Below are positions 42,573-62,144 of a stretch of 64,000 nt of DNA, piece after piece (the first letter of the stretch is position 1; every line of letters begins with the position of its first letter). The notes beneath the pieces are model-generated. The model searched no databases. It was given only the letters and a program-made list of their open reading frames with translations, and had not been told where the DNA came from. This DNA is from a bacterium (GTDB taxonomy: Bacteria > Bacillota_I > Bacilli_A > RFN20 > CAG-826). A program made the position numbers and the translations under genes. The DNA is taken from positions 150,218-214,217 of the forward strand of contig CAVFGR010000008.1 of NCBI GenBank assembly GCA_963622135.1, given 5' to 3'.

Positions 42573-43914
42573 AGCCAGAGTCGTAGCCAGAGGCTAATAA
42601 ATCCCTATATTCCTTTTCTTCCTTCTCGTTGCAGCGGACGAAATGGCCTGGCTCAATCTCGATTAAGCGTGGCTTATCGACGGAATAGTCATGAGAGGCG
42701 CGGGGATCGTATTTGATACGGGTTCTGTGCTTCTCGGTATCCGGGTCGCAGTGTGGAACGGCGGAGAGAAGGGAACGGGTATAAGGATGCAAAGGATGTT
42801 TGAACAATTCGTCCGATGGGGCGAGCTCGACTAAGTTACCGAAGTACATAACGGCGATTCTGTCGCAGAAGTATTTAACGACGGAAAGGTTATGGGCGAT
42901 AAAGAGGATGGTCAATCCCAATTCATCACGTAAATCGTTCAAAAGGTTGATGATTTGGGCTTGGATGGAGACATCCAATGCAGAAACAGGTTCGTCGGCG
43001 ATGATCAATTCCGGATTCATGATCAAGGCACGAGCAATACCGATACGCTGCCTCTGACCGCCGGAGAATTCGTGTGGATAACGATCGGCGTGCTCTGGGA
43101 GCAAGCCGACTTTGTCCAGCATCTCATTGACGCGCTGCTCGATGTATTTCTTGTCTCTCACGCCATTGATGCGAAGACCTTCGGAGATGATGTTGCGGAC
43201 GGTCATACGAGGATTGATGGAAGCCATCGGATCCTGGAAGATCATCTGCATGCCGGAAGTGATACGAGCATGTTTAGCGTCGTTAAGATCCTTCTTATAT
43301 TGTTTAAAAAGTTCTTTTTCTTCGTCGCTTGATAAGACTTTGCCATTGTTGGTATAGCTAAGGAAATCGGCGTATTTGGCCTTGCATTCGGCAACCATCT
43401 GCTTGGCGAAGTTCTTATCGCAGTTCTTGACGTCGTCTTTGACGGCGGCGATACGCTTGCGTTCGCGGTCGCAGATGACTTTAGCGGCATCGATCGCTTC
43501 TTTTCTCTGAGCGTCGTATTTGGCTTTGATTTCCTCAACGTCAGGGTTAGCGGAAGATAATTCGATTTTCTCTTCCGCGTCGATCTCAGCGAGTTTCTGT
43601 TTCAGACGGATGTTGGTGAATTTGATTTCTTTTTCATTCCAACGAGTGCCACCACCGATACGGACGCCCTTAAAATAGACATCGCCAGAGGTTGGCTGAT
43701 ACAAACGGATGATGGAACGGCCGATGGTGGTTTTGCCACAGCCAGATTCGCCGACCAAACCGAAGATCTCGCCTTTATGAATATCGAACGAGACATCATG
43801 GACGGCTTTGTTGTATTTAAAGACACCCGTTCCGCCAAGCTTGAAGTATTGTTTCAAGTGACGGACGCTTAAGATGACTTCTTGCTCTTGAGGCTTTTTG
43901 ACTTCTTCAGACAT
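42562..43914 (-). CDS. oppF: oligopeptide ABC transporter ATP-binding protein OppF (with internal insertion)
   Basis: Walker A GESGCGKTT, signature FSGGQRQRIGIARAL and Walker B LIIADEPVSALD. A roughly 120-aa insertion sits between Walker A and the signature, as in Mollicute-type OppF. Confidence 0.9.
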   Translation of the reverse strand: MSEEVKKPQEQEVILSVRHLKQYFKLGGTGVFKYNKAVHDVSFDIHKGEIFGLVGESGCGKTTIGRSIIRLYQPTSGDVYFKGVRIGGGTRWNEKEIKFTNIRLKQKLAEIDAEEKIELSSANPDVEEIKAKYDAQRKEAIDAAKVICDRERKRIAAVKDDVKNCDKNFAKQMVAECKAKYADFLSYTNNGKVLSSDEEKELFKQYKKDLNDAKHARITSGMQMIFQDPMASINPRMTVRNIISEGLRINGVRDKKYIEQRVNEMLDKVGLLPEHADRYPHEFSGGQRQRIGIARALIMNPELIIADEPVSALDVSIQAQIINLLNDLRDELGLTILFIAHNLSVVKYFCDRIAVMYFGNLVELAPSDELFKHPLHPYTRSLLSAVPHCDPDTEKHRTRIKYDPRASHDYSVDKPRLIEIEPGHFVRCNEKEEKEYRDLLASGYDSGYGE

Positions 43915-45833
43915 TATTTGGCCTCCTTTTCTTCGTTGGCATTTCTCTTATCCAACGCGCGTTTGATACGAGCGGTGACAATCTCAGGCGGGACCGCTTT
44001 TGGAGCTTCCGGAGCCAAGAGCCAAGTAGAGGCGAAATGGGTATCGGAAACTTTAAAGAGAGGCGGTTCTTCCTCGAAATCGATAGCTAGCGCGTATTTG
44101 TTACGAGCAGCGAAAGCGTCACCGACTGGTGGGATAAGCATGTTTGGTGGGGTGCCTGGGATGGCGTCGATCTTTTCTTTGGTATCCAAGTCTGGCATAG
44201 AAGCCAACAAGGCCCAAGTGTATGGGTGGCGTGGATCGTAGAAGATATCATCGACGGAGCCATATTCGACGATTTTGCCGGCATACATGACGGCGATATC
44301 ATCGGCCATATTGGCAACGACGCCCAAGTCGTGGGTGATGAAGATGATGGAGAGGTTGAGTTCCTCTTTGAGGTTGTTGATCAATTCCAAGATCTGAGCC
44401 TGGATAGTGACGTCCAAAGCGGTCGTCGGTTCGTCGCAGATAAGAATCTCTGGCTTGGAGGAAAGAGCAATCGCGATGACGATTCTCTGACGCATACCGC
44501 CGGAGAATTCGAACGGATATTGACGGAATCTGATCTCTGGCTGTGGAATACCGACCTGACGCATGATGTTCAAGGCTTGTTCCTTGGCCTCGGCCTTGGA
44601 AACGGCTCTCTTGCCGGCTTTGATTTCTTTGGCGAAATAAGCCAAGAATGTGTCGACATATTCTTTGGCGTCCAATTTGGTAAGGATGACTTCGGAGACA
44701 TGCTTGACCAATTTGGTGCAGAGTTCTCTAAGCAAGTCCGTCGCATCGGCTGGAGTGAAGGATTTTTCAGGAAGCTTGGCTCTTTCTTTCAAAGTGAAAG
44801 CAGGGACTTCCAAACCTTTCTTGGTGTATGATTCATCTCTCTTTTTAGCCGCTTTCTCGTTATCCAAAGCCAATTTGAGGGCTTCGACATATTTGGCGAA
44901 AGAGGTGTCAAAGACGGCGATGGTATCGTCTTCATCATCCTTGAAAGCAAAGGAGCAGATGACGGATTTGACGGTCTTAATAAGGCCTTTGAGAGTCTTA
45001 TAATCAGCCACATTTTGAGACAATGGACCTTCGATGATGCCGGTGATGGTATCGCGGAGGGTGATCAAGTCGATCTTATAATCCTTGTCGGCCGCTTCGA
45101 TAAGTTCGATAAGCATCTCCCTTAAAGCGGTCTTTTCTTCTTCCGATAAGGATTTTGTAAGCTCTGGTTCGACGAACTCGGTAGGCTCCTCGTGCTTATT
45201 GATGTAGCGGGAGGCGGCCTTCAAAGTCGCGGAAGGATAATGTTCAGGGTCGTTGGCGATGGAGACATTTCTTTCCCAGATGGTCTTATCGCGAATCGAT
45301 TTCTCTTTGGCCTCTAAAACGGACAATTCCTCAAGATTCGCAGCGATGAACTTCTTAACGAGGTTTTCATCATAAGCGATGTTGTTTTTAACCGCCGTTT
45401 TCTTGGTATTATCGAGAATCTCTTTGACTAAACCATTAGCCTCTCTTCTGGCCGCTCGGGCTTTGAGGATGATTGGGTCAGTAAGCTGTTTGCCGACACG
45501 GATGATAGGATCCAAGGCGGACAATGGGTCCTGGAAGATCATGGAGATCTTGGAACCCCTGATGCGATGGAAGCGTTCTTCGGAGATGGTAAGCAAATCC
45601 TTGCCATCGTAGATGATTTCGCCGCCTTCGACCAAAGCGTTCTTGGCTAAAATGCCCAAGATCGCACGGGAAGTGACGGATTTTCCGGAGCCGGATTCAC
45701 CGACGATGCATAAGGTTCTGCCCTTATACAAATCGAAGGAGATGCCACGGACCGCTTTGACGGTGCCGCCATCAACACGGAAAGAGATACGAAGGTCTTT
45801 GACTTCTAAGATTTTGTTATTCTGTTCAGACAT
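43914..45833 (-). CDS. oppD: oligopeptide ABC transporter ATP-binding protein OppD (with large ~280-aa insertion)
   Basis: Walker A GESGSGKS, signature FSGGMRQRIVIAIAL and Walker B LICDEPTTALD; 639 aa. Confidence 0.9.
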   Translation of the reverse strand: MSEQNNKILEVKDLRISFRVDGGTVKAVRGISFDLYKGRTLCIVGESGSGKSVTSRAILGILAKNALVEGGEIIYDGKDLLTISEERFHRIRGSKISMIFQDPLSALDPIIRVGKQLTDPIILKARAARREANGLVKEILDNTKKTAVKNNIAYDENLVKKFIAANLEELSVLEAKEKSIRDKTIWERNVSIANDPEHYPSATLKAASRYINKHEEPTEFVEPELTKSLSEEEKTALREMLIELIEAADKDYKIDLITLRDTITGIIEGPLSQNVADYKTLKGLIKTVKSVICSFAFKDDEDDTIAVFDTSFAKYVEALKLALDNEKAAKKRDESYTKKGLEVPAFTLKERAKLPEKSFTPADATDLLRELCTKLVKHVSEVILTKLDAKEYVDTFLAYFAKEIKAGKRAVSKAEAKEQALNIMRQVGIPQPEIRFRQYPFEFSGGMRQRIVIAIALSSKPEILICDEPTTALDVTIQAQILELINNLKEELNLSIIFITHDLGVVANMADDIAVMYAGKIVEYGSVDDIFYDPRHPYTWALLASMPDLDTKEKIDAIPGTPPNMLIPPVGDAFAARNKYALAIDFEEEPPLFKVSDTHFASTWLLAPEAPKAVPPEIVTARIKRALDKRNANEEKEAK

Positions 45834-45834
45834 A

Positions 45835-47448
45835 TCATTCGCCTCCTCTCAATGTTGGGTTGAACGCATCACGCAAGCCGTTACCGATCAAGTTGAAGGT
45901 AATCATCAATAACGAGATGAAGATCGCTGGGAAGACGATCATATGCGGATAGCTAGATACGAAGTTAGAACCGTCGTTAAGCAAGGTGCCAACGGAAGTG
46001 ATGTTGGAAGTGCTCAAGTTGACGATGTTTAAGTAGGATAAGGACGATTCAGAGAAGATGACGCCCGGAATCATCAAGACCGAGGAAGTGATCAATGTAC
46101 CCATCGCGTTCGGCAAGATGTCGACGAAGATGAGTCGCATGTCTTTCGCGCCCAAAGTACGAGACGCTAAGACATATTCCTGGTTCTTGAATCGATAGAA
46201 CTGCATACGGGTCGTCGAAGCCGTGCCTATCCAGCCTGTTACAACGAAGGCGAACAATAAGGAGATGATAGCCCCGACTTTGGCCGCCAAATGCAATTGG
46301 AACAAGGTCGCGACGATAACGAACGGAATGGCCGATAAGATATCGGTGATACGTTCCATAATAAGGTCGACGGTCCCGCCATAGTAGCCGGAGATAGAAC
46401 CCCATAAAAGGCCGATGATTAGGTTAATCGCGGAAACGCAGACACCTAAGATAAGGGATAATCTGGCACCTGAGGACAAACGGACAAAGATGTCGTTGCC
46501 GACAGAGTTAGCGCCAAATAAGAAGTAGCAGGCTTCGCCGTTGACATATTCGTAATAGTTGTTGTAGTCGACACGGATATGAAGTTTTAAACCGCCGGCG
46601 TCAACGTTTTCGTAATACATGACATTGCCGGAAGCGTCTTTCTTATAGATATCGTAGGCATTGCCTTCGCTATCCAACTTGGCAACGAACTGTTGTCCGG
46701 ATGTTGGCATGACCAATTCATACCAGAGGTTGGCGTTTTGCGAATAGCGGGAAGACATGTTGACACGCAACGTGGTCGTGCCGCCAGGGAATTTGGCAGG
46801 ATAAGTCGGGTCGTAATTTGGAGAAGATGGATCCAATTTGTCATCAATCTCATCGAAATATTTATCGACATAGGTTTCATAATCGATAAGTGGGAGAAGG
46901 ATTTTGCGACCAGTGTTGGCCTCCCATTCCTTGATTTTGTCGATATCGGCAGTGGTGACATCGCGGAGTTCTTTGGCTCCGACGGCGTAGGTATCATATC
47001 TGACTTTGTAATACTTAACCTTCTGGCCAATGACGTTGGTTTCTTCGCCAACTTCGATCTCTTCGGCGATTGGCTTATCTTCCGTCTCATAAAGACGGTA
47101 TTCGTCATAGGAATTGGTGTAGATCTTCTTTTCTTGCGTGCCATCCCAGAAACCGGTTCCTTCGAACATTGGGTTCTTTGGAAGGACGTAAGCGTAGTTC
47201 GCATCGTTCCACTGGACGTTTCTGTCCGTGGTCATCGGAGCGATGATGGCAAACAAAATGATAATCAAAAGGATGACGCCGGCAACGATGGAGCCTTTGT
47301 TGCGGCGGAATCTCTGCCAGCAGCCTCTCAAATATGAGACTGGCTTGGTTTCAAATTTAAGATCGTGGATGGATTTATCCATCTGAACGAAGGTAAATTT
47401 GTCTTTTTTGTAACCGGCATATTCGCTCGGGTTGATAACTTTGCTCAT
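45835..47448 (-). CDS. oppC: oligopeptide ABC transporter permease OppC (with extended N-terminal extracytoplasmic region)
   Basis: C-terminal BPD-transporter permease domain (...LILGVCVSAINLIIGLLWGSISGYYGG...); 537 aa. Confidence 0.85.
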   Translation of the reverse strand: MSKVINPSEYAGYKKDKFTFVQMDKSIHDLKFETKPVSYLRGCWQRFRRNKGSIVAGVILLIIILFAIIAPMTTDRNVQWNDANYAYVLPKNPMFEGTGFWDGTQEKKIYTNSYDEYRLYETEDKPIAEEIEVGEETNVIGQKVKYYKVRYDTYAVGAKELRDVTTADIDKIKEWEANTGRKILLPLIDYETYVDKYFDEIDDKLDPSSPNYDPTYPAKFPGGTTTLRVNMSSRYSQNANLWYELVMPTSGQQFVAKLDSEGNAYDIYKKDASGNVMYYENVDAGGLKLHIRVDYNNYYEYVNGEACYFLFGANSVGNDIFVRLSSGARLSLILGVCVSAINLIIGLLWGSISGYYGGTVDLIMERITDILSAIPFVIVATLFQLHLAAKVGAIISLLFAFVVTGWIGTASTTRMQFYRFKNQEYVLASRTLGAKDMRLIFVDILPNAMGTLITSSVLMIPGVIFSESSLSYLNIVNLSTSNITSVGTLLNDGSNFVSSYPHMIVFPAIFISLLMITFNLIGNGLRDAFNPTLRGGE

Positions 47449-48425
47449 TATTTCTTACCTCCCATACGAATACGAGGATCGACCCAGCCGTAGCTAAGGT
47501 CGACGATTAAGCCGCCGATAAGGCCAATCAAGACATAGAACATACCGACGAACAAGAAGACGTCGTAGTCGCGTCTGTTGATGGACTCTAAGAACAAGCC
47601 ACCGATACCACCGACGGCGAAGATGGATTCGATGACGACGGAACCGGATAAAATGCCGATGAACTCGCCTAAGATCATCGGGAAGATAGGAACCAAGGAG
47701 TTTTTGAATGCGTGTTTGATAGTGGCTTGAGTTCTGGTTAAACCAGTGGTTCTGGCCAATAACATGAAATCAGAGGTTAAGACTTCAGTTAGCTCAGCAC
47801 GAGTATAACGAGCGAAGCCGGCGATGGTGCCGAAGGACATCGAGATGATCGGCGCCAACATCGATTTGAACATTTCCGGGGCGAACCAGTTGCCGCCGTA
47901 AGAGGAAACCGGAGCCAAGGTCAAAGGAAGAATCTTCCAGACCGAACCGAAAAGATACTGAACCAAGAACGCATAAACGAAAGACGGAACCGAAATGAAC
48001 AACATGATGACGACTGACAAGATGTGGTCGATTGGTTTGTTTTTGCGCAAAGCCATCAAAATGCCTAAGCCGAGTCCGACAGGGACGGCAAAGATCATCG
48101 TGTAGATGTTGATAAGAATCGTTGGCGGCATTCTGTTGACCAGCAATTCCCATGGCGACGCTAACCAGGAGATTTGGAAGGAATAGCCGAAATTTCCACC
48201 ATCCGTTGCCGTAAATAAACGGACGAAATAGTTGAAGTACTGGACGATAACAGGATCGTTATAGCCCATTTCTTCTCTGAATCTCGCGGCGATTGCCTCA
48301 CCATCACTGCCTGGAGCTGAAATAAGAGGTACAGGTAAAGCCCTGACCAAGAAGAAGCAGATTGTGAAGATTACGAAGAATGTAAAGATTAACAATCCGA
48401 TACGTTTTAATACATACTTTAACAT
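47448..48425 (-). CDS. oppB: oligopeptide ABC transporter permease OppB
   Basis: MLKYVLKRIGLLIFTFFVIFTICFFLVRALP N-terminus typical of OppB/DppB; 325 aa; GAGGAG RBS. Confidence 0.9.
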   Translation of the reverse strand: MLKYVLKRIGLLIFTFFVIFTICFFLVRALPVPLISAPGSDGEAIAARFREEMGYNDPVIVQYFNYFVRLFTATDGGNFGYSFQISWLASPWELLVNRMPPTILINIYTMIFAVPVGLGLGILMALRKNKPIDHILSVVIMLFISVPSFVYAFLVQYLFGSVWKILPLTLAPVSSYGGNWFAPEMFKSMLAPIISMSFGTIAGFARYTRAELTEVLTSDFMLLARTTGLTRTQATIKHAFKNSLVPIFPMILGEFIGILSGSVVIESIFAVGGIGGLFLESINRRDYDVFLFVGMFYVLIGLIGGLIVDLSYGWVDPRIRMGGKK

Positions 48426-48450
48426 TCGTTAACTCCTCAGGCGTATAGGT

Positions 48451-48488
48451 ATCATACACGCACGGAACGAAAAGACAATTATTCTTTT
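48451..48488 (-). promoter_or_regulatory. promoter candidate for oppBCDF (TTGTCT-16-TATGAT on the minus strand)
   Basis: The minus strand reads ...TTGTCTtttcgttccgtgcgtgTATGATacctatacgcctGAGGAGttaacgaATG. Confidence 0.35.
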
Positions 48489-48751
48489 AGGTGGTTTGGT
48501 TAAAAAGGCCGAGCCATCGAGGATTGACATTATTGACTGACATTTGAATATCGCCAATCCATTTTCATTAAATAATGTTTCATGCATGGTTATCCGTTCC
48601 TTATGCGTTTTTGTTTACTAAAACCACTTTAAAAACGTGTAGGGGTGTCTAACATCGCTCAATTATAGGCATATTTTTCATATTTTAAGTTATGACGCGA
48701 AACAACTATTTCCATTTTTGCCAATCGTTAAAAATCCGAATTAGATAAGCA

Positions 48752-48780
48752 AACAAAAAAGCAGGTCAATTGACCTGCTT
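48752..48780 (-). terminator. rho-independent terminator after oppA (perfect palindrome GCAGGTCAATTGACCTGC plus U-run)
   Basis: 18-bp perfect palindrome at 48761-48778, followed on the minus strand by TTTTTTG. Probably makes oppA transcription partly independent of oppBCDF. Confidence 0.7.
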
Positions 48781-48799
48781 TGATGTATGAACAATTTTA

Positions 48800-51577
48800 T
48801 TATTGCTTATAGAGATCAGCGTTGATTTCGCCAGAAGCGATCTTCTGCGACCATTCGGAATTGGTGAAGTTGAAGGTCATGTAGCGGATTCCGCCGTAAC
48901 CCATAAGTGGGATATATTGTTCAGATCCATAGCTGACCTTGAAGGAAGTCAAGGTAGCGGAGGAACGGGCCAATAATGGCAAAGTGGACCAAGTGTTGAC
49001 ATATCCAGCTTCAAGTTCGGAAAGGATGTTCAACTTCTCGTTATGGCGGGCCTTGTAATCAGCGGCGTATTGAGCAGCGGATTCTGGATCATCCATATCG
49101 TAATCAGCCACGGAGACATCGGTGAGCGAGCTCAATAAGGAATACCATTCATATATATTCTTGGTTTCCTCGGTGCCGTCGCCATCGTAGTCGAAGGTGA
49201 GGTCGATCTTCTTGATCTTGTCGGTCATGCCATATTCGCAGTTGGAATCGAATTCAGCATCGCAATAGACTTCCATCAAGCCCCATGGGTTCATCTGAGC
49301 ACCACCCCAAGTAGAGAAGATGATGTCATAGTTGCCCTTCTTGGCTTCGTCATAGTAGTCTTCGTTCTCGGTCATGTAGTAATCAAACTTAATGACAGAA
49401 GAACCGGCGGCGTCGTTGACGGCTTGGGCCAAAGAATCGAGGGACGCTTTGATGAAGTTATAAGAGGCGATGGTGGTTTCGGAATCGGACTTGTAGACAA
49501 GGATTTCCATCGAGACGGTGTCGCCCTTGCTGAAGTGACCTTCCTGGGTGTCGGCGTTCTCGGTTTCGATAGCGCGCTTGAGATATTCAGCGGCTAAAGT
49601 GGAGTTATAGCCAACGTGGCTGCTATCGAGAGCCTGTCCGTTCTCTTCGTCGATGGTGGAGCCACCGAGGTGGTTATAGATCTTGCCATAGACGCTCTTC
49701 GCCTGAGTCGTGCCACGATAGAACTCGCCATTATCGGCATCAGAGATATAAAGGTTATTCAATAAGCCATAGAAAGCCTGAGAACCAGCGGTGCACTGAG
49801 AGACGTATTGGACACGGTCAATGCAGAGGGAGATGGCTTTGCGGAAGTCTTCGTTGGCCATGATGGTCTTATTGCCGGCATGGGTCGAAGTGGCGGCCTT
49901 TTGTCTCTTCAAGAGCTGCGCACGGGAGACGTTGAAGGACATCTTGGAAGTGTAGGAGGTCGGGGTGAACTGCAAACGGCTGGAAGCGCCGTATTTCTTC
50001 ATATCGGAAGCAGTCAACTCGATATCGTCGATTTCACCATTTTCAAACTTCTGCATAGCAGTGGTGTGGTTGTCGATGATTTCGGTCGTGATCTTCTCGG
50101 TCTGGAACTGACCTTCGTGCTTTCCATCGGTCCAGCCATACCATTTCTCATTCTTTTCGATTTCAATGAGCTTGTTGGACTGGAAGTTGGTGAGTTTGTA
50201 TGGGCCGAAGGATTTATAGTTGCTGGCAGAATCAGTGCCGTACTTGGTGGCCTTCAAGGAGGTACCAGCGACAGTGGTGGTCAATTTGTCGTAAAGTTCG
50301 ATATCGACCAACCAAGAGGAAGTCAAAGAGAACTTCAAGTCAGTCGCGGAGACCGGACTAGCGGAATCCATGATCAAACGGAGGGTGTAATCATCGATGG
50401 CTTCGATACCGACGTTATCGAAGTTGGTGATGCTGGAGTGGTTCTCGTATTCAGCGAACAATGGCAATCTCCAAGCATTGGTCTTATCAGCTAAGCCACG
50501 TGGAGAGCCAAGGGTCTTGATGAAATAGGTAAGATCCGCTTTGAGATCGTTCCAAGTGTAAGCGGTGTAGGAGGCTGGAAGGGATTCGCCATATTTGGCC
50601 AATTCGGATTCAGCAACGATTTTATCGCCGCTGACCTTGAGGCCCAATTCATCCCAATCGTATTGGGAGATATCGTAATCTCTCATTTCCTCGGTGATGT
50701 CGCTGGCGGTTTCAACATTTTTCCAGTCAGTGGAAACCTTAGAGCTTCCGAGAACGCCATCACGACGGATTTTGATAAGGCCTTCTTCGCAGGCATCGAC
50801 AATACGGGTCGCGGCTTTTTCAGCGGCGTCGACTAACTTCGTGCCACGCTGAGCTAAGACCGTATATAAGGAGCCTTCGGTGATATTTGAGAAGATAGCA
50901 CCAGCAAACGGGGAGTCAGCGCCGAGGTTGATATACCAAATATCGTTAGAAGCGAAGTCTGGGTCATCAGAATCGAGATTGCTGTTTCCTTTGATGTAGT
51001 TGTAGGCTGGTTCAACGGTGATCTGGCCGTTTTTGAAGTAAGCTTCAGCATTGGCGAGGATGGTGGTTCCTTTGTAGTAGCTGTCAGCGCGGTGATTAAC
51101 CATCTCAGGGTCGAGCAAACGCTTCATCGATTCGACGTAATCCTGCGCTTTGATCTTGGTTCCATCTTCCCAGCAAGCCGCCTCATTCAATTTGATGTCG
51201 TAGGCGATACCGCTCGGGAGGTTGACGCTAGAACGTCCGAAGTATTTTTGTTTTTCTTCTTTGGTCAATTCGGAAGTGACGTCTTTTGGCATTTCCGAGG
51301 CCATTTCGCATAAGAATTCATAACCGGATTTGTCGGCATTGAATCCGAGATCATAGAATCCCATTTCGGTATAACCCATGATGTAAGAATCAGAGTTGGT
51401 TTCCCAAGCATGCGAGTTCCAGGTTTTTGGGTTGGCATCGAGGTAGGTGCTTAAGGTGTAATCAGCCTTGCTTCCGCCAGATTTACAAGAAACCAAAGCG
51501 GCGACGGCGCCGAAGGACATGACCATAAGAGCTACCAGTTTCTTATTTTTCATACCTTGTATCCTTTCTTTTTTCAA
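48800..51577 (-). CDS. oppA: oligopeptide-binding lipoprotein OppA (925 aa, expanded)
   Basis: Lipoprotein signal MKNKKLVALMVMSFGAVAALVSCKSG and SBP family-5-like core with large insertions. Lies directly upstream of oppBCDF. Confidence 0.8.
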   Translation of the reverse strand: MKKERIQGMKNKKLVALMVMSFGAVAALVSCKSGGSKADYTLSTYLDANPKTWNSHAWETNSDSYIMGYTEMGFYDLGFNADKSGYEFLCEMASEMPKDVTSELTKEEKQKYFGRSSVNLPSGIAYDIKLNEAACWEDGTKIKAQDYVESMKRLLDPEMVNHRADSYYKGTTILANAEAYFKNGQITVEPAYNYIKGNSNLDSDDPDFASNDIWYINLGADSPFAGAIFSNITEGSLYTVLAQRGTKLVDAAEKAATRIVDACEEGLIKIRRDGVLGSSKVSTDWKNVETASDITEEMRDYDISQYDWDELGLKVSGDKIVAESELAKYGESLPASYTAYTWNDLKADLTYFIKTLGSPRGLADKTNAWRLPLFAEYENHSSITNFDNVGIEAIDDYTLRLIMDSASPVSATDLKFSLTSSWLVDIELYDKLTTTVAGTSLKATKYGTDSASNYKSFGPYKLTNFQSNKLIEIEKNEKWYGWTDGKHEGQFQTEKITTEIIDNHTTAMQKFENGEIDDIELTASDMKKYGASSRLQFTPTSYTSKMSFNVSRAQLLKRQKAATSTHAGNKTIMANEDFRKAISLCIDRVQYVSQCTAGSQAFYGLLNNLYISDADNGEFYRGTTQAKSVYGKIYNHLGGSTIDEENGQALDSSHVGYNSTLAAEYLKRAIETENADTQEGHFSKGDTVSMEILVYKSDSETTIASYNFIKASLDSLAQAVNDAAGSSVIKFDYYMTENEDYYDEAKKGNYDIIFSTWGGAQMNPWGLMEVYCDAEFDSNCEYGMTDKIKKIDLTFDYDGDGTEETKNIYEWYSLLSSLTDVSVADYDMDDPESAAQYAADYKARHNEKLNILSELEAGYVNTWSTLPLLARSSATLTSFKVSYGSEQYIPLMGYGGIRYMTFNFTNSEWSQKIASGEINADLYKQ

Positions 51578-52854: not shown

Positions 52855-52893
52855 GGCAAAAGAAAAAGCAACCATTCAAGGTTGCTTTTATTT

Positions 52894-53976
52894 TTAGGCT
52901 GCCGCTTCCCACTTGGCTAACAAAGTTAAATTGCCAGGGATAATCGTTAAGTCGGTGAATTGGCCAGAATTAGGATTGGTTGGATCGGTGAACCAGCCTT
53001 TGAAGACATAGCCGTCATATTCAGGGATTTGAATATTGGACAAAGCCATCGTCTTCCCGACATAACCGGTCGAAATGATGGCGTTCGTGCTAGTGGTTCC
53101 AGCCCAATGCCCGCCATTAGGGTCGAACATGATGCTGCAAGGAACGTCGGTCGTTGTCGTTTCGGCCTTCATGCAGAAGAGAGGTGTCCAAGAACCATTG
53201 TTTTTGACGTAAACCCAGCCGGTCGAGATATTGACATAATAGTCACCATCAATGGCGTTAGGGGCGACGATGTCGTTTGGGGTAGAAGCTCCATACATCC
53301 ACTGGGTGGCGTGCGGTTTAGGGAAAGTCAGATCCTCGCTCGTGCCATCGGAATAAGTGACGGTAAGGCAATATTCGGTCGTGGTCTGTTTCGAATCATC
53401 GATGGTTACGGAGGCGATGCCTAAGCCGTTGGTTAAATCCAATTCGACTGGTTCTAGTCCTTCATCGGTGAAAGAAATGACGATATGATAGCCGGTTGCG
53501 GTTGGGGTGGCCACGATGTTGGAGATGCCATTGCCCCTCGGGATGGTAATAACTTGGGAGACGGTCTCATCAGAATAATTGAACTGAAGGGTGGTATTGC
53601 CGTTTTCGTCATGGTCGACAGTGACGCCGGTGACGGAAACGCCCTCATAATAAGGGATGGTAAATGAGATAGGATCAACACTTTCGTCAGAGAAGGTGAT
53701 CGTGATGGTGTAGCTATGATCATCATTGTCTTTCAAAGTGGCCGAAGTGATGGAAACGCCGTCTTTGCCAGGCAATCCCTGTGGGATGGTAACGGTGAAT
53801 GGATCCTTATCCTCGTCGGTGAAATAGAAAGTGATGACGGTGTCGCCCGTAGCGGCGTCATAGCTAGTCTCGAACGAGCTTAAGGCATATTCGTTGCTGC
53901 CAAAAAACCCGCAGCTGGTCAAACCGCCCGCTAATAAGGCTGAGGATAAAGCCAACAATAAACCTTTCTTTCTCAT
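52894..53976 (-). CDS. lipoprotein with five ~35-aa tandem modules and a C-terminal Listeria-Bacteroides repeat domain; last gene of the 8-gene operon
   Basis: Lipoprotein signal MRKKGLLLALSSALLAGGLTSCG. Repeated modules: TVITFYFTDEDKDPFTVTIPQG, YTITITFSDESVDPISFTIPY, TLQFNYSDETVSQVITIPRG, HIVISFTDEGLEPVELDLTNG and CLTVTYSDGTSEDLTFPKP. C-terminal MFDPNGGHW...PEYDGYVFKGWFTD...LTLLAKW matches the Flg_new/LB repeat. Confidence 0.7.
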   Translation of the reverse strand: MRKKGLLLALSSALLAGGLTSCGFFGSNEYALSSFETSYDAATGDTVITFYFTDEDKDPFTVTIPQGLPGKDGVSITSATLKDNDDHSYTITITFSDESVDPISFTIPYYEGVSVTGVTVDHDENGNTTLQFNYSDETVSQVITIPRGNGISNIVATPTATGYHIVISFTDEGLEPVELDLTNGLGIASVTIDDSKQTTTEYCLTVTYSDGTSEDLTFPKPHATQWMYGASTPNDIVAPNAIDGDYYVNISTGWVYVKNNGSWTPLFCMKAETTTTDVPCSIMFDPNGGHWAGTTSTNAIISTGYVGKTMALSNIQIPEYDGYVFKGWFTDPTNPNSGQFTDLTIIPGNLTLLAKWEAAA

Positions 53977-56459
53977 ATACTTGCTCCTTTCGCATAATTA
54001 TCTTGCAAATCCTTGATGGTCGGGGCTTTCCCGAACAATGAAGGGGTATCGGTTCCAACAACGTCGTTGGTAACAAATTTAAACGGATGGGTGCCCGTGG
54101 CCATGATGACCGCTTTGGCGAAGATTTGGGTGTACCACGCTTCGTTGATGAAGCGATTGCCGATATTCGCCGCCACCAAATCGACGATGACATTAGAAGA
54201 AAAATCATTCTCACCGGTCAGAGAAATAACGCCCCAATCGGAGCCGTTCAATCCACCGCCGTAATAGGCAATCTTCGTATTGGCGTATTGTTTTCCGTCC
54301 CTCTCGTATAAGCATCCCATCTCTTTCAAAGATTCTTTAAGCATGCTCTTGATTGGGAAGAAGTCATCGATGGTGATGTTGATGTCATGCCCCGCCAAAG
54401 AGGAGGCGATACTTGAGATATTTTCGTCAATCAATGAAGAGACATCGATGGAATCAACATCCTTCCAATCATAGAAATTGGTGTTCCCTTCAATCGATAA
54501 ATCAATAGGCCTGGAGGTGCCACCGATCATATTCGGAATGACGGTCCCTCCTAATATGGAAGTGACTAGCTGAATCGGTGTCGGAAGCCCAGAGTAGAGA
54601 TAACCGCCATTGAAGGAAGTCTCAAGGGCGATGGAGAAGATGCCGGAATTATAGAAAGCGGTGTCGTTGACCTTCATTTTGTGTGGGGCGTTGAAATTTA
54701 CCGTATTATCTAATGCGTTTTGGGTATGTCCCAGCAATTGGACCATCTCATCATCGCTATAATCCTTGTAAGACTTGGTCACGTATTTTTGAATCAATTG
54801 CATATAAGTGTTGTCGCTTGAAGCCTCGCGACCGCCAAAAGCATTTCCGATAAAAGCCGAATAAATGGAATTGGCCGTCCCCGAAGCGGATGAAGTATCG
54901 CCAAAGAAATCATTGAATGACTTATTGACCGCCTCGTTATGGACATCATATATGACGCTCTTTTCAGAGTTAGGTTTGGAAACATCATTGGATCCGACTT
55001 TGAGCAAGAATTCGCAGGCGTTTCTCAAGATGCAGTTGTCCAATTCGAAACCATCTGCCTCAAAAGCCCTGACGGCCACCTTGCCATTCTGAATAATGGA
55101 GTTGGTGATTTTGTTTCCTTGGCCATAAACGTCCACAACCGTGCCGACATACGTGAGATTGTACATATCGTCGGTATTGTTGGTGTTGGAGACTAGGACG
55201 TTGTCCAAAGTGATGTTGTTGCCGTCAAGGTAAATGCCTGAGTTATCTTGTCCCAAAGCCTTCACCATGAAGTTTTCTTCCAATGGACCGATGGTGACGA
55301 AAGGAAGAGGACCTTTGAAAAGGTCTTCGTCTCCCGGCATCAGTTTGCCATTCTTGCCAATGGATCCATGGCTTGGATAGGCAAGCTCATGGAAATTGAG
55401 CGTGAACCCATTGCCATAGAAATCCTTTTGGACATGGATGCCAGAGATAATCTCTGGTTTGAAGTCCGTCCCCATTTGCGAATTGTACTGATCAATGAAT
55501 TCATGATTGTAAGTTGTCTCGAAACGATAGACATCGTCCGCGAAACTGAATTCTTTGTTCTTCCAATCGTAATGGCCCATCAAGGAAGTGTTGTCTTTGA
55601 GCTTGGTGTCGTTATATCCACCATGCGCATAAACATACGTGTTTTTCATGGACTCGAGGTTCACTTGGAGGACGGCCTTTTCCCCGTTGGAGGAAAGGTT
55701 GGTCGCCATCAATAAGTCATCATAGGAATAGATGTTATAAGCACCGTCGATGACTTCGAATCGATAAGTCCCACGGATCCATGACTGTTCTTTGGAAGCC
55801 AAGGTGAAATACGAATCACCGGCTCCCTTTATGATAATTTTTCCGTCCTCATAATCGAGGTTGGAAGATTTATCCACCAATTCGACTTCTTGACCGATCT
55901 CCGTCTCGAAATAGACGGTCGAATCAAATTCGATGGTGGCTGGTTGGTTACTATAGGAATCCTTGATCAAGGAATTGTAAACAAAGTCGTACATGCCATA
56001 GGTGCGGTATGTTTTCACCGAATTGCCCGAGATGGCACGTTTGTCGTTGATGGTAATCGTCCCGTTTTCGAAAATGGTCGCGGTGAAATAGCGAGATACC
56101 GTTCCTCTTTCGTTGGAACAGGTGACTTTTACGTCCCCTTCCTCTAAAGCATAAAGGAAATAGGAACCGTTGTTTTTCGTGACCGCGGCTTTTTCAGTCG
56201 AGCTGCCATTTAGTTCGCTGACTGACCAAACCAAATCATTGCCAGGGGCCAAAATCAGGGATTCATCGATGCGTGGAGAGGCCTCAAGAGCGATAGGCAT
56301 CGCCGGATCGGCCTTGAACGCCATAGTGTCCAAATACGCCCAATCGATGCCCAAAATATCGGAAGCCACCGTGTTGTTCAAGGCGACGACGGAGACGAAG
56401 GCAAGGATAGCCACGACAAAGGGGATAACCAACAAAATAGGAAGCGTCTTGTTCTTCAT
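53973..56459 (-). CDS. large secreted/anchored right-handed beta-helix (pectate-lyase-fold) protein (~828 aa)
   Basis: N-terminal signal anchor MKNKTLPILLVIPFVVAILAFVSVVAL. PbH1-like repeats follow (NITLDNVLVSNTNNTDD..., ITNSIIQNGKVAVRAFEADGFELDNCILRNA). Start reset to ATG 56457-56459 with a GGAGG RBS; ATGA overlaps at both ends. Confidence 0.65.
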   Translation of the reverse strand: MKNKTLPILLVIPFVVAILAFVSVVALNNTVASDILGIDWAYLDTMAFKADPAMPIALEASPRIDESLILAPGNDLVWSVSELNGSSTEKAAVTKNNGSYFLYALEEGDVKVTCSNERGTVSRYFTATIFENGTITINDKRAISGNSVKTYRTYGMYDFVYNSLIKDSYSNQPATIEFDSTVYFETEIGQEVELVDKSSNLDYEDGKIIIKGAGDSYFTLASKEQSWIRGTYRFEVIDGAYNIYSYDDLLMATNLSSNGEKAVLQVNLESMKNTYVYAHGGYNDTKLKDNTSLMGHYDWKNKEFSFADDVYRFETTYNHEFIDQYNSQMGTDFKPEIISGIHVQKDFYGNGFTLNFHELAYPSHGSIGKNGKLMPGDEDLFKGPLPFVTIGPLEENFMVKALGQDNSGIYLDGNNITLDNVLVSNTNNTDDMYNLTYVGTVVDVYGQGNKITNSIIQNGKVAVRAFEADGFELDNCILRNACEFLLKVGSNDVSKPNSEKSVIYDVHNEAVNKSFNDFFGDTSSASGTANSIYSAFIGNAFGGREASSDNTYMQLIQKYVTKSYKDYSDDEMVQLLGHTQNALDNTVNFNAPHKMKVNDTAFYNSGIFSIALETSFNGGYLYSGLPTPIQLVTSILGGTVIPNMIGGTSRPIDLSIEGNTNFYDWKDVDSIDVSSLIDENISSIASSLAGHDINITIDDFFPIKSMLKESLKEMGCLYERDGKQYANTKIAYYGGGLNGSDWGVISLTGENDFSSNVIVDLVAANIGNRFINEAWYTQIFAKAVIMATGTHPFKFVTNDVVGTDTPSLFGKAPTIKDLQDNYAKGASI

Positions 56460-58078: not shown

Positions 58079-58873
58079 TTATTCTTCTCCGTAAGTGCTA
58101 AAGAAGATGCGGGCTAAATCCCTTCTCTTCATTGGGTTCGCCTTGAAATCGATGAGTTCGCTGACGACGCCGTTATTGATGATGGCGACCCTATCGCAAA
58201 CCTTGGTGACTAAATCGATGTCATGGGAGGTGATAAAGACGGTTTTCCCGTTTCTGGCAAACTCTTGGATCATGTCGATCAAGGTCTGATAAACGATGAT
58301 GTCCAAACCGACTGTCGGTTCGTCCATAATCCAAATCTTTGGGTTATGAACCAAGGACGCCATGAGGCAGATTTTCTGCTTCATGCCGTGGGAATAGCCG
58401 CTGATACGACGATTTAAATCCTCTTCAGGCATCTTGAATTTCTTTTGGATGAAGGCCATGTTCTTATCGAAAGCTTCTTGGAACATGCCGTATGAAGAAC
58501 CGATAAACTCAAGATAGTCTTTGCCAGTCATCATCTCATAGGCCGTAGGCTCAGAAGAGACATAACCGATGCATTTTTTGGCTTCCAATGGCTTAAGTTC
58601 GATGTCGTTGTTGCAGACATAGATTTTGCCGGAAGTCGGTTCTTTAAGGCCAACGATGCAATCGATGGTGGTCGATTTGCCGGCTCCGTTTTTGCCAATA
58701 AAGCCAAAGACTTCGCCTTTATGGACTTCAAGGTTGATGCCCATGAGGACGTCTTTGTCGGCATAGGATTTTTTAAGGTCTTCGATCACTAAGACATTAT
58801 TGGGGTCTTCGGATGGGGAAAGCTCTTTTGGCTCTTCGGTTTCTATGAGCAATTGCTCTTCTTTTTCTGCCAT
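58079..58873 (-). CDS. ABC transporter ATP-binding protein (exporter-type, single NBD)
   Basis: Walker A GKNGAGKST, signature ISGYSHGMKQKICLMASL and Walker B IWIMDEPTVGLD; 264 aa. Confidence 0.9.
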   Translation of the reverse strand: MAEKEEQLLIETEEPKELSPSEDPNNVLVIEDLKKSYADKDVLMGINLEVHKGEVFGFIGKNGAGKSTTIDCIVGLKEPTSGKIYVCNNDIELKPLEAKKCIGYVSSEPTAYEMMTGKDYLEFIGSSYGMFQEAFDKNMAFIQKKFKMPEEDLNRRISGYSHGMKQKICLMASLVHNPKIWIMDEPTVGLDIIVYQTLIDMIQEFARNGKTVFITSHDIDLVTKVCDRVAIINNGVVSELIDFKANPMKRRDLARIFFSTYGEE

Positions 58874-60294
58874 TATTTCTTCCTCCTTCCTATACTGGTC
58901 AACCAGACTAAGTCACGGTTGTATTGCGGGAGAATCGAGTAAGCCGTCCCGCAGATGGCGCAGATGTAATTCTCGCCGGTGAATGATATTTCTTCGCTTC
59001 CGCAGAACGGGCAACGGTCGCGATATAAGCCGATCGATGATTCAAACAACATCATCATCGAGGCTAAGACGTTACGGATGAGAACCGCCCCATCCTTGCG
59101 GTAATAAGAGAGGTTTATGACGTCTGCGAATTGCTTAAGGACGTTCTTGGCGGTTATAAGCAAGACATCGTCATATCCTGGTTTGGAATCGATGATGGCC
59201 TGAATGGTCTTTTGATTCCTTTCGGTGTAGGAATGGCTGACGATGAGATAATAGGTGGCTTTTCTCTTTTCGTTGTTCTTCTTCTTACCACCCATATAGA
59301 AGACTTTGCATTCGATTCCGTTGTTTTCTCTATCCAAACGGAAGATGAATGAGAAGTTGTCTTTTCTGACCCTTAGTGACTGCATGTCGATACGGCCATA
59401 TTCATCGATGAAGATGGAAGGGGAATTGTCCGGTTCCATTAACTCGGTCGTCGCGAAGTATTTGGCAAAGCCCGTGATGACATAGTTGTAATAAAGGGCA
59501 TCGTTCTTGCTATCATCGTTCTTATTGCTGTAATAAGAAACGTGCATCTTGTAGCAATAATTGTATTTAGGGTCGTGGATAAGGATATTGGTCGGGATGA
59601 CCGAACGATTGAATTTCTTATTGGAAGAAAGACGATAGAATTCCGTTCCTTTAAGATTCTTCAATCTCTTTTGAAGCTTTCTCACCAAGAGAAGCAATTC
59701 ATCTCTTTTGTCCGATTCAGATGAAATCATGAATGGAGTGTAGGGAGCCTTAGATTTGGCGAATTCCTTAAACATCGATTTCTGGCCAAAGGTCTTATCC
59801 GTCCTTTCGAAGTGTTCCTGCAAGGATTCCACGAGAGGAGAGATGTCGCTCATGATAAGATCGACGTCTTCGGCCAACTCATCGATGAACATCGAGATGA
59901 ATTGATTCTCATAGGTATTTAAGGTCTCGGTGTTTTGCAAGGTGTGGACGAATTCCGGAGACATCCCTCCATTCTTCCTTTTCCAGAGCTTTGGATCCCT
60001 CATCGTTTCCGAGAAGGATTCATGAGACAAAGCCCCGGATAATTCAGAATGAATGATGACTTCCTCGGTCGCCGCTTTGATATGGGGATTGGAGACTATA
60101 GCCATAATCTTGTCGGTGGCCGAGCGAATTCTTTCCGCATGGACTAGCTGTTCTTCACAGTCGAAGTCGACGCTGAAAGGGAAGGAGGCCTCTTTGAACT
60201 CTTCGGAATAGACTTTTAAGCCATTCCCAAGGACATTCTTCAGGCAATCCGTGAAATCTCCTAAAAACGATTGGGAAACTAATTTCTCTTTCAT
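58873..60294 (-). CDS. McrC-like partner candidate: 473-aa protein with putative PD-(D/E)xK-like motif and C-terminal Cys4 zinc ribbon
   Basis: Sits immediately downstream of the McrB-like gene. Possible nuclease core IFIDEYG...(25 aa)...GIECKVFY. Zn ribbon CPFCGSEEISFTGENYICAICGTAY. The family assignment is by context plus weak motifs, not firm homology. Confidence 0.45.
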   Translation of the reverse strand: MKEKLVSQSFLGDFTDCLKNVLGNGLKVYSEEFKEASFPFSVDFDCEEQLVHAERIRSATDKIMAIVSNPHIKAATEEVIIHSELSGALSHESFSETMRDPKLWKRKNGGMSPEFVHTLQNTETLNTYENQFISMFIDELAEDVDLIMSDISPLVESLQEHFERTDKTFGQKSMFKEFAKSKAPYTPFMISSESDKRDELLLLVRKLQKRLKNLKGTEFYRLSSNKKFNRSVIPTNILIHDPKYNYCYKMHVSYYSNKNDDSKNDALYYNYVITGFAKYFATTELMEPDNSPSIFIDEYGRIDMQSLRVRKDNFSFIFRLDRENNGIECKVFYMGGKKKNNEKRKATYYLIVSHSYTERNQKTIQAIIDSKPGYDDVLLITAKNVLKQFADVINLSYYRKDGAVLIRNVLASMMMLFESSIGLYRDRCPFCGSEEISFTGENYICAICGTAYSILPQYNRDLVWLTSIGRRKK

Positions 60295-60329: not shown

Positions 60330-62144
60330 TTATAACTTGCGCAATAAGCGGTCTATCATGTGGTTGGTCTGTGGGAATTTGCCTTCCCCATAGGTTTTGA
60401 TGATCAAAGACTTGAGATTCATCAAGCCTGGCTTGATATAGTCTTCGAAACGTCCGTCTAATTTGGCAACGACCTTGCGGGCGAACATGAAATCCAAGGC
60501 ATCTTCCTTGCTTCCGCCGCATTCGACGAAGACCGGAACAAAGTTCTCAATCTGGTTCATGATACGGTTGCCGTAAGTGATATCGAAGGTATCGTAGGCA
60601 AAGTCAGCGATGATACGGAAATTGTTCATATCCTTATTGGACATCTTGTTTTCTTCTTTGCCTTTGGCTTCGGCAAACAAAGCCTGGAGTTTATCAAAGG
60701 ATAAGGTGATCTTAGAGACATCGCCTTCGATCTCGAATGGCTCGTTGCGGTCATCGAAATCGATGGTAATGGCACGGTCATAAACCTTATCGGTGATGGT
60801 ATAGGTGGAATCATCCTTGTTTGCGGTTCCGATGAAATAGGTGTTGGCAGGAATTTTCAAAATACCGTCCTGCAAATGTTCTGGAGCCTCGAAATCATAC
60901 GGGAACTGCATGATTTTGATCTTCCATTCATCGATTGGATATTCCAAAACCGACAAGAAGTCAGCGAAATAGTATTCAATACGCGAGATATTCAATTCAT
61001 CCAAAACCATGAAGTTCAAATTGCTTGGTTTATAGGAATATTCGTATAAGCGTTTTAAGAATTCGGTTTCGTTATAACTTCTGGAGAAGTCGTTGTAATA
61101 GCCAAGGATGGAGGTTTTATCTCTCCAAGTGGCCTGAACGGCTTCAAAGAAGGATTTCTCGGAAACAAATTCAGAGAAATAACGAGCCAAAGAAGATTTA
61201 CCGGTGCCGGATAAACCTTCAAGGATGATGAAACGGGAAGCGGCCAAACCAGCGACGAATTCGCGGATGATGGTCTCGCTATAATAAAGCTTCAATTCTT
61301 TGGCCAAATAGTTTCTGAATTGAGAGCATAAATCTCTTAAGTTGATGTTGTCGTCGAACATTTGCTCTCTATAGCCAATATAGGCATAATCGACCGAGCA
61401 TAAGCCAGGGAAGACTCTTTCTTTGTCGCTTAAGACACCAGCCTCGCCACCGATTCCAGCTCCGGCCACGCCGTTTCCATTGCCGGCGATGCCATTCCCA
61501 TTAGATTCTCCAAAGGATTCGGCCAAAGAACCTTGATCGGCCATCGCGGCCGCGGCTTCTTCGGCTTCCTTCTTTTCTTCTTCGGCGAGTTCGTCGCCGT
61601 GCTTTCCGAAGAACCTCCAAGGTTCATCGATACGCCTGACATTGACCCATAAGAAGGAAATGTTGAGGATCAATAAGGCCAAGAAGACAAAGAAGATGGT
61701 TCCGACCGCTAAGGACTCAGCGAAATACAAATAGCAGAGTCTTACGGCCTCCGGATTCCATGGATGCAACGAAACATAAGAAATACCGCCAAAGAACGCG
61801 GTAGATAAAATAATCGTCGCAATATAGATAAGGACGTATTTGGCCGAGCCACCCTTCTTTTCGTAATACATCGCGGTGCGATATTCGAAGATGAGGGCGC
61901 TGGTGAGGAACATCGCATAAACGAAGAAGATCAATAACAAGGCCCATCTGTGCCATGTTCCTTCAACGATGATGTTAAATCCTAATGCGATGCCTAATTT
62001 CTGGAACGGGTTGTTCTTAGCGAAGATGCCGATGTCACGATCTAAGCCGAGACCGGCAATAATCACGAACGCCGCCCAGAAAAAGACCACGGTGAGAATA
62101 AGCAAATTCTTACGCGTGAAATGAGTTCTCTTTTTCTTGCTCAT
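60330..62144 (-). CDS. membrane-anchored McrB-like AAA+ GTPase (N-terminal 4-TM domain, Gly/Ala-rich linker, C-terminal McrB/AAA_5 module)
   Basis: Residues 1-160 carry four TM helices. The C-terminal module aligns with E. coli McrB: GLSGTGKSSLARYF (Walker A), VQATWRDKTSILGYYNDF (versus VQFHQSYSYEDFIQGY), FMVLDELNISRIEYYFADFLSVLE (versus FIIDEINRANLSKVFGE) and NTYFIGTANKDDST...DKVYDRAI (versus NVYIIGLMNTADRS...DYALRRRF). ATGA overlap with the sipW-like gene. Confidence 0.7.
   Translation of the reverse strand: MSKKKRTHFTRKNLLILTVVFFWAAFVIIAGLGLDRDIGIFAKNNPFQKLGIALGFNIIVEGTWHRWALLLIFFVYAMFLTSALIFEYRTAMYYEKKGGSAKYVLIYIATIILSTAFFGGISYVSLHPWNPEAVRLCYLYFAESLAVGTIFFVFLALLILNISFLWVNVRRIDEPWRFFGKHGDELAEEEKKEAEEAAAAMADQGSLAESFGESNGNGIAGNGNGVAGAGIGGEAGVLSDKERVFPGLCSVDYAYIGYREQMFDDNINLRDLCSQFRNYLAKELKLYYSETIIREFVAGLAASRFIILEGLSGTGKSSLARYFSEFVSEKSFFEAVQATWRDKTSILGYYNDFSRSYNETEFLKRLYEYSYKPSNLNFMVLDELNISRIEYYFADFLSVLEYPIDEWKIKIMQFPYDFEAPEHLQDGILKIPANTYFIGTANKDDSTYTITDKVYDRAITIDFDDRNEPFEIEGDVSKITLSFDKLQALFAEAKGKEENKMSNKDMNNFRIIADFAYDTFDITYGNRIMNQIENFVPVFVECGGSKEDALDFMFARKVVAKLDGRFEDYIKPGLMNLKSLIIKTYGEGKFPQTNHMIDRLLRKL

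Follow-up and report, generated by a model that had tools for sequence, protein, structure and literature searches.

A four-transmembrane McrB-like protein and its McrC-like partner in a conserved operon of uncultured gut Bacilli, with a probable role at the cell envelope

The DNA analyzed here (the window) is a stretch of 64,000 nucleotides (nt) from a bacterium assigned to the Bacillota_I (GTDB lineage Bacilli_A; RFN20; CAG-826), corresponding to positions 150,218 to 214,217 of the forward strand of contig CAVFGR010000008.1 (GenBank assembly GCA_963622135.1). Close to its end lies a minus-strand open reading frame (ORF) with an ATG start that encodes a 604-amino acid (aa) McrB-like protein, 4TM-McrB, comprising four N-terminal transmembrane (TM) helices, an acidic and glycine-rich tether, and an McrB-type AAA+ domain (table 1). 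A gene for an McrC-like partner begins 35 nt downstream, and both belong to a tightly packed minus-strand operon of at least eight genes, in which adjacent genes overlap or are separated by no more than 50 nt all the way from a signal peptidase to a lipoprotein. Bell et al. named a signal-peptidase-associated, membrane-anchored clade of NxD McrB homologs CoCoPALM and suggested a link to pilus assembly (Bell et al. 2024, PMC11090510). We read 4TM-McrB as an NxD-clade, four-TM variant of that class lacking coiled coils, and its function probably serves the biogenesis of the cell envelope or of surface filaments rather than DNA restriction.

Table 1. Positions of the McrB-like gene, its domains, and the other operon features, counted from the first nucleotide of the window.
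Feature	Positions	Strand	Basis or arrangement
Secreted-protein paralog (p181 family), C-terminal 181 aa	63445..64000 (gene runs past the window end)	-	First gene seen
SipW/Sec11 (endoplasmic reticulum/archaeal)-type signal peptidase, 417 aa	62141..63394	-	50-nt gap after paralog
4TM-McrB	60330..62144	-	Start overlaps peptidase stop by 4 nt
Four-helix TM domain (residues 1-170)	61635..62144	-	Hydropathy scan and AlphaFold2 helices
Tether (residues 171-240): acidic helix, EQGxLAxSFGE, Gly/Asn/Ser-rich disordered part	61425..61634	-	AlphaFold2 and 65 homologs
McrB-type AAA+ NTPase domain (residues 241-604 and stop codon)	60330..61424	-	Sequence and profile comparisons
McrC-like partner, 473 aa: DUF2357, alpha/beta domain, zinc ribbon	58873..60294	-	Pfam, AlphaFold2
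ABC transporter ATPase, 264 aa	58079..58873	-	Pfam ABC_tran, E 1.3e-27; DrrA/GldA-like; 1-nt overlap with McrC-like stop
Multi-TM permease, 538 aa	56456..58072	-	Hydropathy; 6-nt gap after ABC ATPase
Large surface protein with N-terminal TM anchor, 828 aa from ATG at 56459	53973..56459	-	4-nt overlap with permease
Lipoprotein with Listeria-Bacteroides repeat, 360 aa, last operon gene	52894..53976	-	Flg_new, E 1.6e-8; 4-nt overlap
Bidirectional terminator-like hairpin	52864..52889	.	10-bp stem with T runs on both strands

The McrB-like protein has more than 3068 database matches, the best 120 of which are ∼600-620 aa long and align over 99-100% of the length at 53-100% identity, which indicates that the gene is real; almost none of these matches carries a name. 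An earlier note on this DNA, made without database searches, had assigned the C-terminal module to McrB rather than to generic AAA+ proteins. The blocks on which it relied are all present and contain many residues that are invariant across 65 aligned homologs, including Walker A (GLSGTGKS, residues 310-317), Walker B (MVLDELN, residues 379-385), the intervening VQATWRD...YYNDF block, and the sensor block (GTANKDDST, residues 439-447). The note had called the sensor MNTADRS-like; the block does align to the MNTAD of Escherichia coli McrB and bears the McrB-type signature, but in the NxD form (N442-K-D444) and not as the NxxD of E. coli (MNTADRS). GLSGTGKS, the LDE of Walker B and R457 are invariant among the homologs, Walker A and B are also found in all 78 related loci, and the form GTAN-x-D-[DE]-ST occurs in 79 of 79 relatives compared (the 78 loci plus the window). 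An NxD motif, usually with D or E next, marks a major branch of the McrB family (Bell et al. 2024, PMC11090510).

Profile comparisons point in the same direction. The sole protein sequence in the PDB matched by phmmer is E. coli McrB (6hz4; E 5.5e-4, residues 286-460), and hhalign matches 166 columns of the family profile to E. coli McrB with a probability of 89.5% (E 2e-6), starting ahead of Walker A and ending beyond the sensor block. The same profile aligned to the MoxR protein RavA yields 42 P-loop columns only, at a probability of 9%. The best match of the AAA+ domain in a defense database is PADLOC PDC-M26A (E 1.2e-37), and among plasmid sequences tblastn finds a protein with an annotated EVE domain, a fusion typical of McrB. 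The outcome that would have counted against the McrB assignment, top matches to MoxR/RavA, dynein or other AAA_5 families without McrB-specific similarity, is not seen at the sequence level, but Pfam reports AAA_5 alone and below threshold, and Foldseek with the whole AlphaFold2 model retrieves MCM, NorQ/RavA/CbbQ, dynein and Lon at weak E-values with no McrB in the top 50. By sequence the domain appears closer to McrB than to other AAA+ proteins, which the fold search does not show.

The four hydrophobic helices proposed in the earlier note for the first ∼160 residues were recovered by two methods. A Kyte-Doolittle scan places segments above the usual threshold at residues ∼14-34, 66-86, 103-124 and 140-165, and the AlphaFold2 model (alignment of 65 homologs; mean pLDDT [predicted local distance difference test] 77) has helices at 11-34, 64-95, 101-125 and 131-170, with pLDDT mostly 79-94 in this block. 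Neither Pfam nor NCBIfam detects a DNA-binding domain in the protein, in agreement with the proposal that a membrane domain takes the place of the DNA-binding head of canonical McrB. Because about 14 Lys and Arg residues lie on one side (the N-terminus MSKKKRTHFTRK, loop 2 and the segment after TM4) as opposed to about 5 on the other, and because the number of helices is even, we predict an N-in/C-in topology with a cytoplasmic AAA+ domain. With residues 1-180 as the query, 1.84 billion representative proteins gave just 33 matches, all of them full-length family members or short fragments, suggesting that the four-TM domain is private to the family.

In the model, the last TM helix is followed by a further helix (181-210), a disordered segment (211-238, pLDDT < 50) and then a folded alpha/beta/alpha domain that extends to the C-terminus. 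The flexible Gly/Ala/Asn-rich linker described previously (GNGIAGNGNGVAGAGIGGEAG, residues ∼214-234) falls within the disordered segment. Across the 65 homologs the tether measures 58-74 aa and is rich in E, G, S and A, with Q204, L207 and F211 invariant. These residues lie in EQGxLAxSFGE (window positions 61506-61538, residues ∼203-213), a motif kept within the otherwise variable and disordered tether that looks like a docking peptide for some partner. Mean identity among the homologs is 84% in the AAA+ core, 62% in the lid, 38% in the TM domain, and 34% in the tether.

The downstream partner contains DUF2357, the N-terminal domain of McrC, above the Pfam threshold. The same domain is found in 16 of its 17 database homologs and in the partners from other clades, and a DUF2357 gene adjoins the McrB-like gene in every clade. 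Invariant residues in the 17 homologs concentrate in the N-terminal half (E84, G87, H91, D100-P101, W104, K107, E114, H117, Y128-E129-N130, and others) and in a C-terminal zinc ribbon (CPxCG...CxxC), and no D, E or K is invariant between residues 270 and 420. The AlphaFold2 model of the partner (pLDDT 75.5) comprises a helical N-terminal half, a poorly conserved alpha/beta domain (293-420), and the zinc ribbon. Its most conserved stretch, residues 72-125, is modeled with low confidence in the monomer, as expected of a finger that docks into a ring pore, and would fit a segment that becomes ordered only inside the ring. Pfam finds no nuclease family in this protein or in the partners of other clades, Foldseek gives only weak and nonsignificant likeness to PD-(D/E)xK folds, and the partner family shows no hhalign similarity to E. 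coli McrC. We conclude that the partner is probably an McrC-type activator without a detectable nuclease active site. It diverges fast, being 22-31% identical between the window and related loci where the GTPase stays at 45-55%. At loci with a 55% identical GTPase, the partner is 28-31% identical, as compared with 64-69% for the ABC ATPase, 42-47% for the peptidase, 36-47% for the permease, 39-42% for the 828-aa protein, and 38-43% for the lipoprotein.

The remaining operon genes point to protein export and the cell surface. The peptidase matches the NCBIfam models for SipW and archaeal signal peptidase I (E ∼4e-13, both below cut-off), and its closest PDB sequences are human SEC11A/C (E 3e-5). 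In 28 orthologs its boxes SM (112-113), HR (167-168) and G186-D187 of GDKN are invariant, and N189 is kept in at least 80%. The protein is about twice the usual length; at its N-terminus it has one TM helix more, together with a charged loop, and past the last TM helix it carries an unconserved K/E/S-rich C-terminal tail of ∼170 residues. Upstream of the peptidase, orthologous loci carry one to six tandem copies of the p181 paralogs (210-300 aa), which diverge fast and have in common an N-terminus rich in K, the motif VGF[AS]xW[VI]I at the end of a hydrophobic stretch, and F.WG..F....NP in the C-terminal part. The permease ortholog at one related locus (L083) belongs to PF09847 (12TM_1). The 828-aa protein has a single N-terminal TM segment by hydropathy, its orthologs align from residue 25 of the listed ORF, and it has no sequence match in Pfam or the PDB. 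The lipoprotein begins with a lipobox-like LTSC. The hairpin beyond it separates the operon from a convergent phosphatase-like gene; other terminator-like matches are weak, with stems of 5-8 bp, and close to the number expected by chance. Given this packing, we predict that the McrB/McrC-like pair is cotranscribed, and in part translationally coupled, with the peptidase, its likely substrates, the exporter, and the surface proteins. There is no gene for a VWA protein in the operon. Housekeeping-type transport genes lie in the flanks of the window, GC content is even, and no defense genes, integrases or compositional anomaly were seen nearby in the window.

The earlier note had also called for a search for other McrB-like proteins with N-terminal TM domains and for their gene neighborhoods. 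A scan of one genome per species yielded 80 loci; mapping of the window operon's proteins by BLAST and hidden Markov models (HMMs), together with TM counts, split these into four groups (A-D), which include one-TM and four- to five-TM clades near peptidase or pilus genes. Group A, with about 28 loci, carries the four-TM form of ∼600 aa and comes from uncultured gut Bacilli (among them Candidatus Enteromonas, Onthovivens, Alloenteromonas and "uncultured Mollicutes"), genomes that we take to belong to the RF39 lineage; no cultured member was found among the loci examined. The block from peptidase to lipoprotein is kept in the same order down to 36-45% identity of the McrB-like protein, apart from three of the most divergent loci (36-37% identity), in which it is rearranged. 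Four loci from among the closest relatives (L001, L010, L016 and L022) are labeled Alistipes shahii, Paludibacteraceae, Prevotella or Gemmiger formicilis, yet their operons are clearly of the same Bacilli type, and these contigs are probably mis-binned or mislabeled. Another RF39-like genome has a 555-aa four-TM copy with a partner but without the peptidase and ABC block (L024:7455-10510). Its AAA+ part is 60% identical and its TM domain diverged, and it may be a paralogous stand-alone module.

The other groups place the same pair in different surroundings. Group C consists of one-TM proteins of ∼510-526 aa, mostly from metagenome-assembled genomes (MAGs) of Clostridia and from Candidatus Coproplasma, with a few MAGs labeled as Bacilli. 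Where flanks exist, the typical layout is a SipW-like peptidase, the McrB-like gene, the DUF2357 gene, and a second SipW-like peptidase, which is the CoCoPALM layout (Bell et al. 2024, PMC11090510). This unit is preceded by two GGDEF/EAL genes and by the gene of a protein that bears the SipW-cognate signal of TIGR04088 at its N-terminus (21.8 bits, cut-off 19). Such a pair of membrane GGDEF/EAL proteins and a SipW-cognate signal protein precede the one-TM locus in L050, L051, L059 (402-11576), L067 and L078-L080, which hints at cyclic di-GMP control of the associated fiber genes. Group B comprises four- to five-TM proteins from Clostridia and Christensenellaceae. Seven of its loci (L034, L036, L039, L040, L041, L042 and L044) form a subclade that directly follows type IV pilus genes; the pilus set is full or nearly so in six (pilin, prepilin peptidase A24 [PilD], an uncharacterized 509-aa protein, PilC and PilB), and the seventh is a partial contig with pilB alone visible. 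In this subclade the pair forms the tail of the pilus operon, with a 46-nt gap past pilB; at L039 (949-10432), for example, the McrB-like gene starts at that distance on the same strand. Other group B members are two-gene modules in unrelated contexts. The HMM of the four-TM domain detects the L024 copy and the Christensenellaceae forms and misses the pilus-linked subclade. Partners in Christensenellaceae (L031:6286-8658, L033:1968-4325 and L045:9000-12431) have two to four C-terminal repeats of a ∼120-aa module, which in the one tested (L031) matches the PADLOC candidate PDC-S18 (E 4e-15). Group D contains soluble forms of 763-795 aa from Brevibacillus, Butyrivibrio and Ectobacillus, with partners of 760 aa.

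In a rough neighbor-joining tree of the AAA+ domains, the multi-TM clade is sister to the peptidase-flanked one-TM clade and the soluble forms fall outside. Searches of 2.9 million viral contigs found no relative, and those of plasmids and phages no full-length one. The McrB/McrC-like system does not appear to be mobile, and the arrangement behaves like vertically inherited core genome.

The reading that we favor, and to which we give an even chance of being correct, is that 4TM-McrB and its partner make up a ring and plug, tethered to the membrane and driven by GTP, whose work on the operon's envelope machinery is mechanical or regulatory. At the cytoplasmic side of the membrane, six protomers would come together as an AAA+ ring that depends on GTP, and 24 TM helices would anchor it via the flexible tethers. 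The DUF2357 finger (residues ∼72-125) of a single McrC-like subunit would enter the ring and, in the manner of E. coli McrBC, use the NxD aspartate to stimulate hydrolysis. The result would be no cut in DNA, but work on the SipW/Sec11-type peptidase, the tandem secreted substrates (candidate fiber subunits), the ABC exporter, and the two surface proteins. We infer the hexamer, the finger insertion, the nucleotide preference and the identity of the client from what is described for E. coli McrBC (Bell et al. 2024, PMC11090510), and the coupling to the peptidase and to fiber assembly is a proposal as well. These steps extend the observed domain architecture, the intact catalytic motifs, the lack of conserved nuclease residues in the partner, the packing and synteny of the operon, and the recurrence of the pair beside filament systems. 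The last of these is the strongest argument that the job concerns surface filaments, since in sister clades this pair has SipW/TasA-type or type IV pilus genes as its neighbors. The suggestion in the earlier note of an envelope role in place of methyl-DNA restriction is supported by the same contexts, the conserved operon, and a partner without a detectable nuclease site.

Several points weigh against this reading. The operon's secreted paralogs do not reach the TIGR04088 model and have no fold recognizable by sequence, so that "fiber subunit" is a guess. The two-gene modules (L024, L031-L035, L045 and L047/48) have no peptidase or pilus genes nearby. The TasA-type fibers of Bacillus subtilis are not known to need an NTPase, which leaves a motor requirement unexplained. 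A tether this long and disordered speaks against a rigid mechanical link with the membrane domain, and the fast divergence of the partner is a pattern also seen in conflict systems.

Among the other explanations, a defense role at the membrane is the main rival, and we consider it unlikely; a division role or a MoxR-like chaperone is less likely still. As an anti-phage system, the pair would act either as a gatekeeper at the membrane or filament base that senses or blocks nucleic acid coming in by way of pili or fibers, or by abortive infection, with the four-TM domain as an effector that damages the membrane upon triggering of the ring. Descent from type IV restriction enzymes, a candidate defense model (PDC-M26A) as the nearest in the defense database, the fast divergence of the McrC-like partner and of the secreted paralogs, and the existence of stand-alone two-gene versions all accord with this view. 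Pili and fibers are also common phage receptors. No nuclease or other recognizable effector is present, however, and the synteny is conserved and vertical over deep divergence in small genomes, the genes being translationally coupled to envelope genes. The absence of nearby defense genes, integrases and compositional anomaly likewise speaks against an anti-phage role, as do the absence of the family from viral contigs and of full-length proteins from plasmids, and an AAA+ core that remains 84% identical across the clade. On the other side, Bell et al. handle the NxD clade as conflict systems (PMC11090510).

A regulator of cell division or envelope morphogenesis, comparable to PcdA of Staphylococcus aureus, would reduce the link with secretion genes to mere coexpression, and we regard it as improbable. 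PcdA belongs to the McrB family of NTPases and sets the position of the division plane (PMC12272431), a fusion to a TM and coiled-coil segment resembling FtsB has been described for the one-TM relatives (PMC11090510), and the operon behaves like core genome. However, there are no division genes in the window operon or in the related loci examined, where the repeated neighbors are peptidases, pilins and secreted proteins, and PcdA has a degraded nucleotide pocket with no McrC partner mentioned (PMC12272431), whereas pocket and partner are intact and conserved in the window system. The structural hits noted above and the sub-threshold AAA_5 match would suit a generic membrane-anchored chaperone ATPase of the MoxR/AAA_5 type whose likeness to McrB is superficial. 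This seems very improbable against sequence and profile comparisons that single out McrB and align RavA no further than the P-loop, an invariant Nx(x)D signature, a DUF2357 partner adjacent in every clade, the lack of the VWA partner typical of MoxR proteins, and a tblastn search that also reaches an EVE-domain McrB-type protein.

McrBC is the textbook GTP-driven restriction motor. In the clade described here, motor and activator are retained and the motor is fixed to the membrane, but neither a DNA reader nor a nuclease site can be detected, and the occurrence of the same pair beside three different surface-filament gene sets suggests a defense machine domesticated for envelope biology. We tentatively extend this to the proposal, more doubtful than the ring and plug itself, that the Firmicutes domesticated an McrBC-derived ring and plug, tethered to the membrane, as an accessory engine or a checkpoint in the construction or remodeling of surface filaments, interchangeable among unrelated systems, namely SipW-processed TasA-like fibers, type IV pili, and the RF39-type operon of secreted paralogs and ABC genes. 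If true, this would be a new class of filament-associated NTPase that descends from a restriction enzyme and lies outside the PilB/PilT family. The CoCoPALM class had been named only in passing, and the multi-TM form, the type IV pilus link, and the conserved operon of at least eight genes are described here. They offer testable entry points, including which filament is served, the target of the ring, and the need for GTP hydrolysis.

Elsewhere in the window, two adjacent ORFs of ∼1200 aa (26970-30554 and 30609-34232, minus strand) match no Pfam family at E ≤ 1e-5. An Opp-type oligopeptide ABC operon (42562-51577, minus strand) encodes unusually long ATPases (450 and 639 aa) and a long binding protein (925 aa); over-long Opp proteins are a feature of Mollicutes-like genomes.

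The closest described system is CoCoPALM, which was named from genomics only, in a single paragraph that defers details to a later paper (PMC11090510), and a literature search did not find that follow-up. Both it and the window system pair an NxD McrB-like GTPase, whose N-terminus spans the membrane, with a neighboring DUF2357 partner, and both have a SipW-like signal peptidase alongside. Unlike CoCoPALM, which has one FtsB-like TM helix followed by a coiled coil, the window protein has four TM helices in a family-private domain. Both window subunits also appear to lack a long coiled coil, as the AlphaFold2 models contain no helix longer than ∼40 residues outside the membrane in either protein; the McrB-like protein has one 30-residue acidic helix before its AAA+ domain. 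There is one peptidase in place of two, and the operon adds a conserved ABC ATPase, a 12-TM permease, the 828-aa surface protein, and the lipoprotein. Of the four features stated for CoCoPALM, the window form has the NxD-clade GTPase and the signal-peptidase association (∼28 loci) and lacks the single FtsB-like TM and the coiled coils on both subunits. The type IV pilus link of the sister subclade is absent from the text of Bell et al. (PMC11090510).

With E. coli McrBC (6hz4) the window system shares the AAA+ core, Walker A and B, the Nx(x)D signature, and the gene order B then C, in which the downstream partner carries the N-terminal domain of McrC. It differs in having a membrane anchor instead of the DNA-binding domain, NxD instead of NxxD, and a partner that lacks conserved PD-(D/E)xK residues and carries a zinc ribbon. 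In the NxD clade, McrC homologs often carry zinc ribbons and a nuclease that is inactivated, or have lost the nuclease (PMC11090510). The CoCoNuT and PDC-M26 systems belong to this same GTPase clade, PDC-M26A being the window's best defense-database match, but the window system is without their long coiled coils, HEPN or other nucleases, and soluble N-terminal domains, and is instead membrane-anchored and located within an envelope operon.

The tapA-sipW-tasA operon of B. subtilis resembles the window operon in setting an endoplasmic reticulum/archaeal-type signal peptidase beside its dedicated secreted substrates, and it shares the SipW-cognate signal with the one-TM clade. The window substrates differ in carrying the related but distinct VGF[AS]xW[VI]I with no TIGR04088 match, and the Bacillus operon is not known to contain an NTPase. 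S. aureus PcdA provides the parallel of an McrB-family NTPase recruited to a role at the envelope that is neither restriction nor defense (PMC12272431). PcdA is soluble and has a degraded nucleotide pocket, and its review mentions no McrC partner (PMC12272431), whereas the window protein is membrane-anchored, keeps all of its catalytic motifs, and has a partner.

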